Positions 3,203-12,768 of a stretch of 12,768 nt of DNA are shown here, piece by piece. The notes beneath the pieces were generated by a model. That model made no database searches and had not been told where the DNA came from. It worked only from the letters and a program-made list of their open reading frames with translations. Positions within the stretch are counted from its first letter, which is position 1, and each line of letters opens with the position of its first letter. The DNA is taken from positions 1 through 12,768 of the forward strand of contig NW_021827133.1 in assembly GCF_006345805.1 (NCBI RefSeq). The letters run 5' to 3'. Source of the stretch: Octopus sinensis (taxonomy: Eukaryota). The position numbers and the translations under genes are program-made.

Positions 3203-3426
3203 AACTATCTACATGTATAAAATTACGCCTATGAATATATGTACGTCTATTAACTCTTATATGCAAATGCATCTCTCTTTACTAATACCTGGTATCGACA
3301 GGCATCTGTAAAATATGGGGGAAGCGTTGGTGTGCCTTAAATTGCTTCTCTTAGCTGTTTCCTTTCAGAATTAGAATTAGTATTGTGGCATAAGAAATAT
3401 CAATACTATTACTAACGTTGATAATA

Positions 3427-3846
3427 CTCTTTTACTCTCTTTTACTCTTTTACTTGTTTCAGTCATTTGACTGCGGCCATGCTGGAGCACCACCTTTAAT
3501 CGAGCAACTCGACCCCGTGACTTATTCTTTTTGTAAGCCCAGTACTTATTCTATCGGTCTCTTTTGCCGAACCGGTAAGTGACGGGGACATAAGCACACC
3601 AGCATCGGTTGTCAAGCAATGCTAGGGGACAAACACAGACACACAAACACGCATATATAATATATATATATATACATATATACGACGGGCTTCTTTCAGT
3701 TTCCGTCTACTAAACCCACTCACAAGGCTTTGGTTGGCCCGGGGCTATAGCAGAAGACACTTGCCCAAGGTGCCACGTAGTGGGACTGAAACCTGAACCA
3801 TGTGGTTGGTTAGCAAGCTACTTACCACACAGCCACTCCTGCGCCT
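3427..3846 (-). mobile_element. tRNA-derived SINE, family C, with an internal microsatellite and a short-repeat tail
   Basis: The minus strand starts AGGCGCAGGAGTGGCTGTGTGGTAAG (A-box), then GTTTCAGTCCC (degenerate B-box) and GGCACCTTGGGCAAGTG (CORE-like). It has an internal TA/TG tract, a 3' tail of AGTAAAAG-type repeats, and a possible 6-bp TSD ATAATA (3421-3426 and 3847-3852). Confidence 0.88.
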
Positions 3847-4124: not shown

Positions 4125-4525
4125 ATACACACGCACACACACATAATTATACCTATACCAATAACCAATAAATTATAAATGTAAACGCAAACACACACAC
4201 ACGCACATACACATATATATATACATACATATAAATATATGTAACATATACCTTTATGTGTGTTTATATATATATATATATATATAAACAAATATGCACA
4301 CACATTCATGCACGTATACATAAATAATATTTACTAAATATGTATATTAATTATGTATGCGTGCGTATAATTATGTATATGTCTGTATAAACATTAAATA
4401 TACGTATCTTTATATATTTATATATGTATGTATATTATAAGTGGAAGCATATGTAATATATACATATATATATATATATCCATACATATATATATATATG
4501 TTATATATGTGAATATGTATATATG

Positions 4526-4553
<28 letters not shown>
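4125..4553. repeat. Low-complexity TA/CA-rich microsatellite region
   Basis: Read directly from the sequence. Confidence 0.9.
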
Positions 4554-4556
<3 letters not shown>

Positions 4557-5228
4557 TAAGTATATTTTTTTGTGCCATTACTTTCACAAAAGCCTTTTCA
4601 ATTTACGGTTCTATATTGATATATTTAAGTGTTTTTCCTTTCTCGCAAAATAAAACATAAATAAATATATAATTAAATAAAATAACAAAATCAAAAATAA
4701 ATACGTAACTTTTTTACATACAAGTGTTGAAACAGTGAAGATGTGTTCCTGAGAGAATCGATTTTGGTTATCATTTCCATAATTCATATTATCGTTTCTG
4801 TGACGCAAGCAGAGCTGAGCTGAGAAGCTTACCTTTGGAATTCTCTCACACACCTTTATGAATGTATAAATTAAATTAATTATTATAGATAAGGATGGAT
4901 ATATTTTTTTTAAGTTTGTACACCTTTAAAATATTAAATACTCTTTTATAAATAACGATTAACATTTTGGAATGGCATATAGTTATCAGCAGTTATACCA
5001 AACACCGTTTTATACATGATAAGCAGAAATAAATGAAAATAAATGTTATGTATGTGTGTAATTAATGTAAGTATATACAGGTATGAATTCATCACAAAGC
5101 GTATAGCAGGTATATGATTATATACACAGTTTTACGGAATAAGCTGGTACAATAAATAAGCATTTACAGTTAACACACAGAAAGCTATGAGGAACAGGTA
5201 GGTTCTTAAATATCTTAAATATATATAT

Positions 5229-5362
5229 GTCTTTCCTGATGAGAAGACGGAATAATGCACTCTTTATTCCTTCGGAATTAAGAATATGTAGTCTTCGAAA
5301 CATGTGTCGAGAATAAAGGAATTTTGTTAAATCGTCGTTCGACTCCATTCTTTCATTTATCT
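5229..5362 (+). mobile_element. Probable solo Penelope-like pseudo-LTR fragment carrying the hammerhead
   Basis: The hammerhead is followed immediately by AATAAA (5312-5317), and a diverged dispersed paralog lies at 8556-8685. Minimal type I hammerheads are an established feature of Penelope pLTRs. No linked ORF was seen and the boundaries are uncertain. Confidence 0.55.
5232..5312 (+). ncRNA. Type I hammerhead ribozyme motif with an intact core
   Basis: Stem I TTTC (5232-5235) pairs with GAGA (5309-5312). The core is CTGATGA (5236-5242). Stem II GAAGAC (5243-5248)/GTCTTC (5291-5296) encloses a GGAATAA/TTATTCC hairpin. GAAA is at 5297-5300, followed by a minimal stem III (ACA-TG-TGT) and the GUC triplet, giving a predicted cut after 5308. 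Confidence 0.82.
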
Positions 5363-5380
5363 ATATTATAGATATATGTA

Positions 5381-6184
5381 CAAAATCATCACCTTCAACA
5401 ATTTGGAAAGGTTCCTAAACTTGGAAAATGGGTGCCTCGTGAATTGTTCGAAAGCAACCGCAAATCCCGAGTTGGCATCTGCTCTTCTCGCCATTCTCGT
5501 GAACTCAATTCACCCTTTTTGGATAGATTTGTGACTGGTTACGAAATTGAATCTTCTGTCGAAATGTTAAACGTTGTAAACAGGGGCTTGGTAAAAGAGA
5601 AAAAGCTCAACCACAACGGAGAATGGAACTCAAGGCAAAAAGTTGCTTCTCTCTATCTGGTGGGATTGCAAATGAGTAATTCACTTTGAATTGTTATCAC
5701 CTAATGCGACAATCAATGCTCAAGTCTACTGTCACCAATTAGAGCGTTTGAACCAAGCTTTGAAGAAAAAAGACCCTCTTTAGTGAATCGAAAAGGAGTG
5801 ATGTTTCATCAGGAAGATGCGCGACTCCACACAGCAAAGATCACATCACAGAAGATCGAAGAGCTTCACTGGGAAAAAATTCCTCATCCACCTTCTGCTC
5901 TCGACCTTCCTCCTTCAGACTACCATTTGTTTCGTAGTTTACAGAATCATTTGGGGGACACACTTTCGCAAGCCAGGAGGTGGTCGAAACTGTCATTTCA
6001 GAGTTTTTCGCTTTGAAACCAAAAGAGTTTTACATTGATGGGATTAAAAAGCTTGTAAATAGATGGAAGGAAGTCATAGATAATCAGGGAAAGTACATTG
6101 ATGATTAATTTCAATTAAATATAACATTGGCTCACTTGTTTTCTAAATTCAAAATTGGGACAGAACTTATGGTATGATCTGATA
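5381..6184 (+). mobile_element. 5'-truncated, frameshifted mariner (Tc1/mariner DD34D) transposon with a transposase pseudogene and right TIR
   Basis: Motifs across frames: KLGKWVPREL (WVPHEL), FLDRFVTGYE (first D decayed), FHQEDARLH (HQDNARPH), HPPSALDLPPSDYHLF (YSPDLAPSDY), and the C-terminus GIKKLVNRWKEVIDNQGKYIDD* ending at 6108. A TIR-like GGACAGAACTTATGGTATGATCTGA followed by TA lies at ~6158-6184. Confidence 0.93.
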
Positions 6185-8084: not shown

Positions 8085-8555
8085 AAGAATTGACTCAGAA
8101 ATCTCAAAACGAACACATATACCCCAAAATACATTATTCATCATCGCACAAATAAACTTGTATAACATTTACATGGGGAAATATCAGCCGAGACCTACGC
8201 AATCTTTCTCTCAATCAAATACAATATAGAAAATTACATGTATTTCATACGACGTGTTATGAGCAAGATGCATATTGTTACAATGTGCTAGTTGTGTCGA
8301 TAGAATAAAATTCCATAATACCTACAATTTCGCATCAATATCTAATATATTTTTGCAATCGTTGTCTTTCCTGAGTCATTTAGTTTCTCTTAAATCGTGC
8401 ACGATATCATGGCCTATGTGAAATACCTGTTAAGCCTCGAGAAACCACTCCATACCATTGTATATATATTAAACAATATTAATAGCGTTCTGTCAATCGC
8501 TATACAAATCCATCATTTTTGCTAAAATGTCTTATTGACGAGTTTCGTTTTTTTC

Positions 8556-8641
8556 ACTTTCCTGGGGAGAAGATTGCATTGTTTATACCATTTATTCTTT
8601 TGAATAGTATCAGTGAAATTTTCGAAACATGTGTCGAAAGT
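8556..8641 (+). ncRNA. Type I hammerhead motif, paralog of 5232-5312, with an A6G core mutation (likely inactive)
   Basis: Stem I ACTTTC (8556-8561)/GAAAGT (8636-8641); core CTGGGGA (8562-8568); stem II GAAGATT (8569-8575)/AATTTTC (8617-8623); GAAA (8624-8627); CATGTGTC with a predicted site after 8635. Confidence 0.72.
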
Positions 8642-9002
8642 AAAAATATTTGATTACACCTGCGTTAAACTCCATTTATTTATTCATATATTATTCAAAA
8701 TATTCAACGTAAACACAAAGTTTCTACCTTTATAAACAAGTAGTTACAACACCTTTACTTGTGAGATTTTTGCTGCCCTGATAACTATTTATTTATTTTT
8801 TCCGTGTTAATTGTTAACAAGGTAAAAAAATACTCATCTTATATATATATATATATAATATACGTTTTTATTATTATTTTGCATTTTACTTAATCATCGG
8901 TATATTATTGTTATTTTAAATTTAATATTTCTATTATATGTAATTTTCTAGATGGTGTAATTTAATTGTTCATTTTGAATTAATAAAAGGTGTTTTTTTC
9001 TA

Positions 9003-9006
<4 letters not shown>

Positions 9007-9079
<73 letters not shown>
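9007..9079. repeat. Pure (TA)n microsatellite at the left boundary of the Penelope remnant and duplication
   Basis: Read directly from the sequence. Confidence 0.95.
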
Positions 9080-9081
<2 letters not shown>

Positions 9082-9477
9082 GCAATCTAACTTTCACTGG
9101 ACGATGCCTCAGCATCAATTCCCATCTTCCGTCCGTACAGTATAAGGAGAGAGATTGCTCAGTGCCTTAAACATCGATCAATGACTAGAACTAGTGACCT
9201 TTATGCCCACCACAAAGAAAGGATCAAGCTAAGAAACAATCTACTATGCAACACTAGCCAGGACATACTATATCCTCCAATTAAGAAGAGAAGAGATGAT
9301 GACCCTTAAACTGACCACAGTCGTGTCTACACTATGTCAAAGGCCACTCCGAAAAGATACGAAAGTTATGCGGTTCATATTACATCAGGACAGTATTCAG
9401 AAATAATCTAACACTTCACAAATATCTCCTCCAAGTAAGACCACCCATAAAAGAGAATATGACCAAATACTGCGTGT

Positions 9478-9780
9478 TGTTTGTTCCTTCTCGAGCCATG
9501 CCTGGCTCATAAGGGCCGGTTTCCTGGTTTCTTGGCGTATAGGTTCCCCACTTTGACGGGACCCCGGTCCGTCGCAGGTGAGCTGCAAGATGCAGGAGGA
9601 AAGAGTGAGAGAAAGTTGTGGCGAAAGAATCAGCAGAAGTTTCGCCATTACCTTCTGCCGGAGCCGCGTGGAGCTTAGGTGTTTCGCTCATAAACACACA
9701 CATCGCCCCGTCTGAGATTCGAACCCGCGATCCCTCGACCGTGAGTTCGCTGCTCTAACCACTAGGCCATATGCCTCCAC
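9478..9780 (-). mobile_element. tRNA-derived SINE (family A-like head, different 3' half) inserted in the Penelope ORF, copy 1
   Basis: A-box TGGCCTAGTGG and B-box GGTTCGAATC on the minus strand. A decayed TSD reads CAAATACTGCGTGT (9464-9477)/CAAGCCTGCGTGT (9781-9793). Removing the insert rejoins ENMTK to CVYSIP. Confidence 0.9.
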
Positions 9781-10134
9781 CAAGCCTGCGTGTACTCCAT
9801 CCCATGGCGTTGCGGTAGGTTATACAAAGGTGAGACATGCCGTCCCCTTAGAGGAACATTGTAAGGCTGTGGCACGAGGGGATAGTGAAAAATCAGGTAT
9901 AGGTGATCATGTATGAAAAAAAGGGAGACCACCTCCCTTGTGGGATGAAATTAAAATAATAGACAGATAACACCGCTGGAAAATACGAAAATTAAAAGAG
10001 GCTCTGCATATGCTAGGACACAAGAACCTCCTAAGCAGACCTAGTGCAGATATGAATGTAATATGGGAACAAGTATTAAGAAAAGATAAAATATTAGGTT
10101 TATAAACCCCAAAATTCCCTCTCTTATTCCCTAC

Positions 10135-10205
10135 GGACATGCAGCGTAGCGGATAAGAGCATGCCCTGCTAACCCTCGGATGCTGAGTTCAATTTTAGTA
10201 GCGAC
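10135..10205 (+). promoter_or_regulatory. Degenerate tRNA-like Pol III A/B-box region in the Penelope 3' region (duplicated at ~11895-11966)
   Basis: GGACATGCAGCGTAGCGGATAAGAGC contains the A-box-like CAGCGTAGCGG (10142-10152). The B-box-like GAGTTCAATTT (10185-10195) lies at tRNA-like spacing. Confidence 0.5.
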
Positions 10206-10314
10206 TTGGGAAATAATTTATAACAAAATTAACATCAGCGGAAGAAGAATACCTTGGCAGGGAAAAAAGCGTACCACATTAGTTAAAAAAGGATTGGGTT
10301 CGAAATTCCACCAG

Positions 10315-10360
10315 AAAACTTGATGAAGTCTGGAGAGTACATCAGCAGAAACGTTGTGGT
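10315..10360 (+). ncRNA. Degenerate minimal hammerhead-like motif in the Penelope pLTR, copy 1
   Basis: TTGATGA (10320-10326, C3U), partial stem II CTGG/TCAG, and GAAA-CG-TT (10348-10355) with the palindromic ACGT stem III of dimer-type minimal hammerheads. Stem I pairs poorly. Confidence 0.55.
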
Positions 10361-10740
10361 AACAACAAACAAGATGAGGACAAAATATCCGTCAAATGTA
10401 AGTGATATATACATATGTATGTATATTCTATAAACTTATTCTTTTTTCACATAGCCATAATAAAATAACAGGTTCATTTCAATAGAGCCAATTTTACTCT
10501 TCTTATGTGTATACGTGTGTACAAGGCGATGTATGTATGTATACAGTGTGAGCGTCAGCATCACTCTAGCTATCTATCAATCTATTCACCTATCTATTAT
10601 CTATGTATTTTTCTTCTCTCTCTCTCTATCACTGTATATATATATATATATCTATACACATGTATGTATGTATGTATATATATATATATATGTAAATGTA
10701 TATATAATTTTATATGTATATAAATATATATATATATTTA

Positions 10741-10792
<52 letters not shown>

Positions 10793-10795
10793 TAA

Positions 10796-10836
<41 letters not shown>

Positions 10837-11235
10837 GCAATCTAACTTTCACTGGACGATGCCTCAGCATCAATTCCCATCTTCCGTCGTTACAGTATAA
10901 GGAGAGAGATTGCTCAGTGCCTAAACATCGATCAATGACTAGAACTAGTGACCTTTATGCCCACCACAAAGAAAGGATCAAGCTAAGAAACAATCTACTA
11001 TGCAACAACTAGCCAGGAAACATACTATCCTCTCCAATTAAGAAGAGAAGAGATGATGAAACCCTTAAACTGACCACAGTCTGTCTACACTATGTCAAAG
11101 GCCACTCCGAAAAGATACGAAAGTTATGCGGTTCATATTACATCAGGACAGTATTCAGAAATAATCTAACACTTCACAAATATCTCCTCCAAGTAAGACC
11201 ACCCATAAAAGAGAATATGACCAAATACTGCGTGT

Positions 11236-11546
11236 TGTTTGTTCCTTCTCGAGCCATGCCGGCTCATAAGGGCCGGTTTCCTGGTTTCTTGGCGTATAGG
11301 TTCCCCACTTGACGGGACCCCGGTCCGTCGCAGGTGAGCTGCAAGATGCAGGAGGAAAGGAGGAAGAAGAGTGAGAGAAAGTTGTGGCGAAAGAATCAGC
11401 AGAAGTTTCGCCATTACCTTCTGCCGGAGCCGCGTGGAGCTTAGGTGTTTCGCTCATAAACACACACATCGCCCCGTCTGAGATTCGAACCCGCGATCCC
11501 TCGACCGTGAGTTCGCTGCTCTAACCACTAGGCCATATGCCTCCAC
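11236..11546 (-). mobile_element. tRNA-derived SINE inside the Penelope remnant, copy 2
   Basis: Duplicate of 9478-9780 with the same decayed TSD (11222-11235 and 11547-11559). Confidence 0.9.
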
Positions 11547-12075
11547 CAAGCCTGCGTGTACTCCATCCCATGGCGTTGCGGTAGGTTATACAAAGGTGAG
11601 ACATGCCGTCCCTAGAGGAACATTGTAAGGCTGTGGCACGAGGGGATAGTGAAAAATCAGGTATAGGTGATCATGTATGAAAAAAAGGGAGACCACCTCC
11701 CCTGTGGGATGAAATTAAAATAAGACAGATAACACCGCTGGAAAATACGAAAATTAAAAGGGCTCTGCATATGCTAGGACACAAGAACCTCCTAAGCAGA
11801 CCTAGTGCAGATATGATGTAATATGGGAACAAGTATTAAGAAAAGATAAAATATTAGGTTTATAAACCCCAAAATTCCCTCTCTTATTCCCTACGGACAT
11901 GCAGCGTAGGCGGATAAGAGCATGCCCTGCTAACCCTCGGATGCTGAGTTCAATTTTAGTAGCGACTTGGGAAATAATTTATAACAAAATTAACATCAGC
12001 GGAAGAAGAATACCTTGGCAGGGAAAAAAGCGTACCACATTAGTTAAAAAAGGATTGGGTTCGAAATTCCACCAG

Positions 12076-12121
12076 AAAACTTGATGAAGTCTGGAGAGTA
12101 CATCAGCAGAAACGTTGTGGT
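12076..12121 (+). ncRNA. Degenerate minimal hammerhead-like motif in the Penelope pLTR, copy 2
   Basis: TTGATGA (12081-12087) ... GAAACGTT (12109-12116), identical to 10315-10360. Confidence 0.55.
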
Positions 12122-12508
12122 AACAACAAAACAAGATGAGGACAAATATCCGTCAAATGTAAGTGATATATACATATGTATGTATATTCTATAAACTTAT
12201 TCTTTTTTCACATAGCCATAATAAAATAACAGGTTCATTTCAATAGAGCCAATTTTACTCTTCTTATGTGTATACGTGTGTACAAGGCGATGTATGTATG
12301 TATACACGTGTGAGCGTCAGCATCACTCTAGCTATCTATCAATCTATTCACCTATCTATTTATCTATGTATTTTTCTCTCTCTCTCTCTCTCACTGTATA
12401 TATATATATATATCTATACACATGTATGTATGTATGTATATATATATATATATATGTAAATGTATATATATATTTATATATGTATATAAATATATATATA
12501 TATTTATA

Positions 12509-12556
<48 letters not shown>

Positions 12557-12768
12557 CTATATATATATATATCCGTCTCCATCTATCTGTCTATCTGTCT
12601 ATCTGTCTGGCGCTCTCCTCTCTCAGTATATATATATGTGTGTGTGTGTGGTGTGTGGTGTGTGTGTTGTGTACGTATGCATGTATATGACTATATGTAT
12701 TCTATAACCTGAGAATGTATGTTTTCGTGTACACGTGTAAGCCTAATATATATCTAAATATTATATAA

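Follow-up and report, generated by a model that had tools for sequence, protein, structure and literature searches.

Two hammerhead-like motifs in one contig of Octopus sinensis, at 5232 and 8556, raise the question whether they are pieces of a single mobile element or separate arrivals, and how the second came to have G at core position 6, where most of its relatives have A (A6G). The window, i.e. the whole stretch of DNA analysed here, is the entire contig of 12,768 bases from a genome of 2.72 Gb, AT-rich and with many microsatellites. We propose that a 370-base, 5'-truncated pLTR with its tail, from a high-copy Penelope-like family likely belonging to the Hydra clade, contains the 8556 motif as a hammerhead fold, that this copy and the one at 5232 are likely independent insertions, the former into a TA run, and that A6G most likely represents a single event at a change-prone A6 site; we put the probability of this reading at about 0.85. 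Published systems are cited from the accessible parts of the respective sources.

Predicted hammerhead fold

On the forward strand, positions 8556 to 8641 form a predicted type I hammerhead, identified by fold prediction and core letters, with cleavage likewise a prediction. Stem I joins ACTTTC (8556-8561) to GAAAGT (8636-8641) in six perfect base pairs, as a sequence-only reading of this DNA had claimed. Between its strands lie the core CUGGGGA (8562-8568; G8565 is core position 6), stem II with a structured insert (8569-8575 with 8617-8623), the GAA of the hammerhead (8624-8626) and stem III (8627-8634), and the predicted cut falls after C8635 (hammerhead numbering according to PMC7151607). 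In the MFE fold stem II comprises 7 bp, one mismatch and 5 bp more, followed by two additional insert helices; all three insert helices that had been claimed are present, and the core-proximal pairs have probabilities of 0.85 (stem I) and 0.88 (stem II). The MFE is not beyond that of shuffled sequences (z -1.19; 24 of 200 shuffles equally good), and an Rfam scan gave 90 matches at E<=1, all microsatellite-driven miRNA noise with no hammerhead among them, a miss likely explained by the long stem II insert. Since the shuffle statistic is weak and Rfam is blind to this form, the case for a hammerhead was built on the core letters and the family. The family satisfies the type I pattern (CUGANGA...GAAA...UH, three helices in type I order), and the window copy has all of these core letters except A6. 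That its core differs by a single change agrees with its relatives: the family majority is CUGAGGA, and among 69 copies, a sample deliberately enriched for A6G, CTGAGGA is present in 39 and the column of 8565 (forward strand) holds 52 A, 13 G, 2 T, 1 C and 1 gap.

A6G is predicted to weaken cutting by the window copy; A6C lowers hammerhead cleavage and does not abolish it (PMC3088659, PMC7151607). The literature covered, with subscription papers and the supplements of PMC4209133 largely outside its scope, yielded no test of A6G cleavage and no report of A6G recurrence or of editing in PLE hammerheads.

Stem III has two pairs and a self-complementary loop and is, according to predicted energies, of the dimer type: an 8-bp dimer register is favoured at -6.0 kcal/mol over the monomer hairpin at +2.4 kcal/mol, and a shifted 6-bp dimer register is equal at -6.0 kcal/mol. 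The two variants in the family, ACAUAUGU and ACAUGUGU, can both self-pair as dimers (-7.0 and -6.0 kcal/mol, respectively) and are both unstable as monomer hairpins (+2.4 kcal/mol). Dimer-type PLE hammerheads have been described with low activity (PMC4209133), and the ribozyme of active elements would likewise cut weakly, as a dimer formed through the palindromic stem III.

Stems I and II contain similar words in both motifs (5231-5246 and 5294-5311; 8557-8573 and 8621-8638), such that an alternative, non-catalytic fold is possible, in which the 5' strands of stems I and II pair with each other and the 3' strand of stem II pairs with that of stem I. This is the MFE fold of the 5232 copy in one span and the RNAalifold consensus, which favours it in the core region, where the search pattern had fixed the letters in question; it could be an off state.

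Covariation between the motifs and their relatives

Relatives of the 8556 motif are called family B here and those of the 5232 motif, which has the canonical core CUGAUGA (5236-5242, forward strand) and a predicted cut after C5308, family A. The words reported as common to the two motifs are in place, i.e. CTTTCCTG at 5231 and 8557, TTCGAAACATGTGTCGA at 5294 and 8621 (with no third occurrence in the window) and, downstream, ACTCCATT at 5342 and 8669, and the likeness is beyond chance (self-BLAST E 1.5e-7). Stem II differs between them as described, GAAGAC/GTCTTC against GAAGAT/ATTTTC (C-G to U-A plus G-C to G-U). Loop II and the insert, considered strongly diverged, are indeed diverged but still homologous: the central TATTC/GAAT hairpin can be aligned across subfamilies. 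A pattern common to both families has 2823 exact matches in the genome (reversed control, 0), which sort by eye into about seven subfamilies.

Covariation was scored on 33 distinct sequences, for which 30 were taken in genome order and the two window copies and three other members of the family were added. Using a structure drawn by hand from these same sequences, with core-proximal columns fixed by the search pattern and relatedness left in the statistics, 84.9% of 919 cells were paired, with 43 double changes, and the covariation score was 0.171 compared to 0.124+-0.006 for shuffled and 0.038-0.109 for slid partners. Pairs that carry a double change were no more numerous than in shuffles (8 vs 6.3; 45 of 500), in this check on homologs that had been proposed earlier. 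Double changes are located at pairs 29-78, 30-77, 36-71, 13-99 and 48-67, with clear switches at 29-78 (A-U/G-C), 30-77 (C-G/U-G/U-A, the pair singled out earlier) and 36-71 (A-U/U-A); pairs 28-79, 31-76 and 12-100 are open in 14, 23 and 23 of the 33 sequences. The compensatory changes represent, as had been suggested, divergence between lineages, in that they separate subfamilies. There is moderate support from the alignment for compensatory pairs between subfamilies, and selection in source elements may have maintained the paired stems.

Ends and insertion of the 8556 copy

The motif lies in a 5'-truncated, non-coding remnant of a family B Penelope-like pLTR with its tail (8469-8838, forward strand); relatives align from 8469 at 93-96%, and longer copies extend upstream of this position into the endonuclease end. 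It is flanked by (TA)4 at 8461-8468 and (TA)9 at 8840-8857, the likely target site, and (TA)n ends most copies of the family. The tail (8692-8838, forward strand) is optional according to the family alignments: 29 of 92 stop at 8691, and 44 reach the query end at 8838. Two reverse transcription start sites were shown for another Penelope element, with which the two 3' ends of family B are consistent (PMC11167929). Partial tandems and inverted 5' arms are common, and truncation at the 5' end occurs as well. An excess of copies beginning at the cut site was considered and rejected: 8636 is the start of one alignment among the 92, which were sampled with a bias toward whole hammerheads.

In the proposed course of events, the RT-endonuclease of the element would have nicked a (TA)n site, and copying would have begun at the tail-bearing end of the RNA, passed the uncut hammerhead and halted some 370 bases on. 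We also note a 6-bp inverted repeat, ATAGCG/CGCTAT, in the region 8479-8503 on the 5' side of the family B hammerhead, enclosing the marker positions 8491 and 8495.

Recurrence of A6G

The family-B pattern has 335 genomic matches, and the family B copies are a median 2.2% from the family majority (window copy, 2.7%). With a 23-letter family-B pattern, 17 G and 370 A were counted genome-wide at position 6, two of the 17 coming from other subfamilies. Across subfamilies, and with the window included, position 6 is changed to G in 68, T in 10 and C in 3 (81 rows), and position 9 to G in 18, T in 13 and C in 3 (34 rows). A6G is accordingly about four times as frequent as A9G (68 vs 18; without the window 67 vs 18, P 8e-8), while transversions are nearly equal (13 at A6, 16 at A9), and within the family-B pattern 16 non-window A6G changes compare to 10 A-to-G changes at five neighbouring A sites together (P 3e-7); these comparisons cover six control sites, haplotigs and unplaced contigs may duplicate loci in them, and the window itself was chosen for A6G. 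Plain random decay fails to explain this excess.

With the A6 column masked, the A6G copies require 13 independent changes among 13 on the tree; the clustering seen with the column included (7 changes) was circular and disappeared upon masking. Among two-arm insertions, five that include an A6G arm were examined: in four of them a single arm is changed and in the fifth both are, and a further two-arm insertion has A6U in both arms. Among the discordant inverted insertions, L148, L155 and L163 have A6G in the tail-bearing arm, and L158 with L042 has it in the tail-less arm.

Contigs from five presumed-RNA runs cover the family and have A at 8565 with no G, contigs being such that rare variants are dropped and ends, strand and level are not given. 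With regard to a possible assembly error behind A6G, the non-A remainder at 8565 in large runs, irrespective of letter, is small: 415 of a depth of 191643 in run X15, 61 of 12958 in X16 and none in X17. At core position 4 (window 8563) about half of the summed depth of the three large runs is C (U4C), and the deepest contig of the presumed-RNA runs carries this change, which is absent among 163 loci; the U4C contigs likely stem from a sister family that is high in copy number and variant in its core.

Origin of the A6G change

We give somewhat better than even odds to a DNA-level change, with A6 being a site prone to it. The four of five insertions in which a single arm is changed, together with the 13 of 13 changes on the masked tree, favour many A6G changes being of late origin. 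For the window copy, A6G most likely arose once, whether in a source copy or, following insertion, at the DNA level; an assembly error is a matter of a few percent. The suggestion that this copy was inactivated later is thus unproven, since A6G recurs in excess and may predate the insertion.

That the parent element already had A6G and nevertheless retrotransposed, some A6G copies then being sisters, is doubtful. In support, marker 8495A, which the window copy has, is found in seven of the 11 A6G copies outside the window that have data there, compared to 37 of 210 in the family (six of 10 without one edge case; P 0.001-0.003, uncorrected for about 13 markers). However, no A6G clade is present on the masked tree, where all 13 changes are separate, the A6G copies conflict at other markers, and shared variants are not in excess (0.42 vs 0.33+-0.14, P 0.23). 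Under the strict pattern and without the window, the link is 3 of 36 vs about 3 of 173 (P 0.065; the 3 of the larger class are from loci already known, 100 of its 173 matches having been listed), and the A6G excess of other subfamilies is left unexplained.

Taking together every route by which A6 was switched to G prior to integration, i.e. site-specific A-to-I editing or mobile A6G source copies, we consider it unlikely. If it were true, the genome would be a fossil record of ribozyme-weakened RNAs retrotransposing in vivo, and an RNA editor could turn off the ribozyme of a retroelement.

The RNA-stage variant, in which A6 is edited A-to-I in some transcripts and the weakened ribozyme leaves the RNA uncut to be copied as G, appears improbable. 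It would account for an excess of A6G over A9G with even transversions, for the excess over the five neighbouring A sites in the family-B pattern (16 vs 10) and for its occurrence in several subfamilies, and it agrees with the one insertion that has A6G in both arms, the arms being merely 97% alike. Another Penelope element did not need cleavage to insert in vitro (PMC11167929), and the ApT context, considered as a cause of A6G, is no hotspot (A>G 0.14% at ApT vs 0.67% elsewhere). Against editing, four of the five two-arm insertions are discordant at A6, and G at 8565 was not seen in the contigs of the five presumed-RNA runs, in which rare variants are dropped. An element-wide editing signature was looked for and is absent from the A>G rates, both in the whole family, where A>G is not generally above T>C (4.3 vs 3.35 per 1000), and in the A6G copies, where A>G elsewhere is not raised (0.45% vs 0.57%). 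Moreover, A6 has a 5' G neighbour, which ADARs disfavour.

The parent element

Two loci, L061 and L062, show an EN+ Penelope-like architecture, RT followed by a GIY-YIG-like segment between two pLTRs, which is absent from the window: the two family-B pLTRs are 2864 bp apart and enclose a frameshifted ORF. Pieces of the L061 ORF identified by eye in the alignment are RW(L), DKT, YRDD, a GIY-YIG-like segment, CLLC (CxxC) and CKH (CxH). The Pfam match to RVT_1 is weak (E 0.0046), tblastn to the full-length homolog P0001 gives E 1.9e-80, and Atlas matches are at 0.95-0.96 with GIY-YIG clusters among them; Pfam did not detect GIY-YIG, and this call relies on the motif, the alignment and Atlas. In family A, loci L011 and L022 have the endonuclease end with a protein 57-61% identical to that of family B, and across family A and five other loci the endonuclease ends are related, with proteins 52-64% identical. 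Relatives of the 8556 copy thus adjoin an ORF for RT with a C-terminal GIY-YIG-like segment, a check that the sequence-only reading had proposed along with one for tandem arrays of the motif, of which none were seen.

These ORF traits correspond to Hydra clade motifs in PMC8557442: family B has RW, DKT, a C-terminal EN with no CCHH seen, CxxC and CxH, is <3 kb and inserts at (TA)n. The linker CxCX5C, which in Hydra precedes the endonuclease, is missing in L061 and L064, while the homolog P0001 has a cysteine linker there. Judged from these motifs, family B is likely a Hydra-like Penelope element, probably of the Hydra clade; as the linker is missing, it is not filed there outright. Two unplaced contigs carry three occurrences of one full-length insertion with its flanks, 99.9% alike (L061 and L062; C8755:10038 and 86328), through a duplicated assembly or a segmental duplication, which calls for caution on copy counts.

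It is highly improbable that the motif is part of a non-coding retrozyme, i.e. a tandem 170-400 nt unit of a circular RNA. The type I hammerhead, the weak palindromic stem III, the length of about 370 bases and the AT-richness would fit (compare PMC7229834), but the copies are solo, inverted or adjoining the ORF and not in tandem arrays, and longer ones continue directly into the RT-endonuclease ORF.

Two families in one window

The 5232 motif is in the short-end form of a family A pLTR remnant (5228-5362, forward strand; 94-98% to its own family), family A being a sister family. From 40 scored candidates each, it has 51 genomic matches, the full-length ones at 94-98%, and the 8556 motif has 43, the full-length ones at 94-99%; the sole outlier among full-length matches of both families is one at 83%. 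The window copies are identical to each other in 95 of 141 columns (67%). On these identities, and with the median of 2.2% from the majority in family B, A and B are regarded as different, young, high-copy families. This argues for two independent solo pLTR remnants, one of the possibilities that had been raised, and against a local paralog of the 5232 motif.

Neither RT nor endonuclease has left a remnant in the window (best tblastn E 0.22 for the 3327-bp spacer separating the motifs), and this spacer includes an unrelated remnant of a mariner-type DNA transposon (5385-6184, forward strand; 84-91% to genomic relatives, of which L097 matches Pfam Transposase_1 at E 6.7e-20, plus HTH_48). Nesting of the 5232 copy in the mariner was rejected, as mariner homology begins at 5385 and the upstream half is absent from 4300-5228. 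An origin of the pair as the eroded ends of a single ancient element, or by local duplication, is contradicted by these data: both motifs are on the same strand and their 3327-bp spacing is near the 2864-bp period of the element, but the families are young, with identities of 94-99% within and 67% between, the endonucleases of subfamilies differ by about 40%, and the spacer has a mariner and no RT-EN ORF.

Other repeats and motifs

About 1760 bp are duplicated at positions 9006-10834 and 10760-12572, several blocks being 100% identical, through either a recent tandem duplication or an assembly artefact. A dispersed repeat at 299-676 and 1766-2153, with parts at 9593-9780 and 11361-11546, is 75-88% alike within the window and matched by up to 25 fetched loci; it may be a tRNA-derived SINE, which it resembles. 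Further high-copy repeats at 1020-1512, with internal inverted symmetry, and at 3400-3800 are possibly MITE-like. Other hammerhead-like motifs of unrelated sequence with a palindromic loop 3 were seen at L011:2752 (-), L046:2393 (+) and L027:1178 and 781 (-), one of them with a CCGAUGA core.

Comparison with known systems

Published work already covers both hammerheads in the terminal repeats of Penelope elements and molluscan elements of the Hydra clade, and the window fragment is in this respect routine; the A6G excess is the sole part that might surprise a specialist. How such ribozymes serve the element is unsettled according to PMC8557442 and PMC11167929. About 2900 copies in several subfamilies permit counts of core changes per site, and through the excess one can ask directly whether the templates in vivo are uncut or edited RNAs.

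Family B resembles the Hydra clade as described in PMC8557442 in its size (<3 kb), a single ORF of RT and then a GIY-YIG-like segment, RW/DKT, CxxC/CxH near the C-terminus, (TA)n targets, a pLTR hammerhead, inverted 5' arms and the CCHH not seen in family B, and differs from it in lacking the CxCX5C linker. Its hammerhead also differs: stem II of the 8556 copy encloses a 55-nt structured insert (10.1 to 11.1), whereas about 30 Hydra hammerheads in File S2 have a short loop 2, and its stem III has 2 pairs with a 4-nt palindromic loop, compared to 3-4 pairs. An octopus element, Hydra-1_Obim, is already placed in the clade and its hammerhead differs in sequence from the 8556 motif (Craig et al. 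2021, PMC8557442). With Anolis Poseidon PAc (PMC11167929), family B shares an optional tail from two 3' ends and copies that cross the hammerhead cut site; Poseidon PAc belongs to another clade, has a tail of 30-40 bases vs about 147 in family B, and was assayed, while family B is known here from sequence alone. Metazoan non-LTR retrozymes (PMC7229834) similarly have type I hammerheads with a weak helix III, but are tandem and non-coding, whereas family B has its own ORF. Metazoan PLE hammerheads with a small palindromic helix III (Cervera and De la Pena 2014, PMC4209133) are alike in the long helix II, G10.1-C11.1 and the palindromic loop 3, and likewise are mostly solo, with some pairs on opposite strands 100-700 bp apart and families showing compensatory changes.
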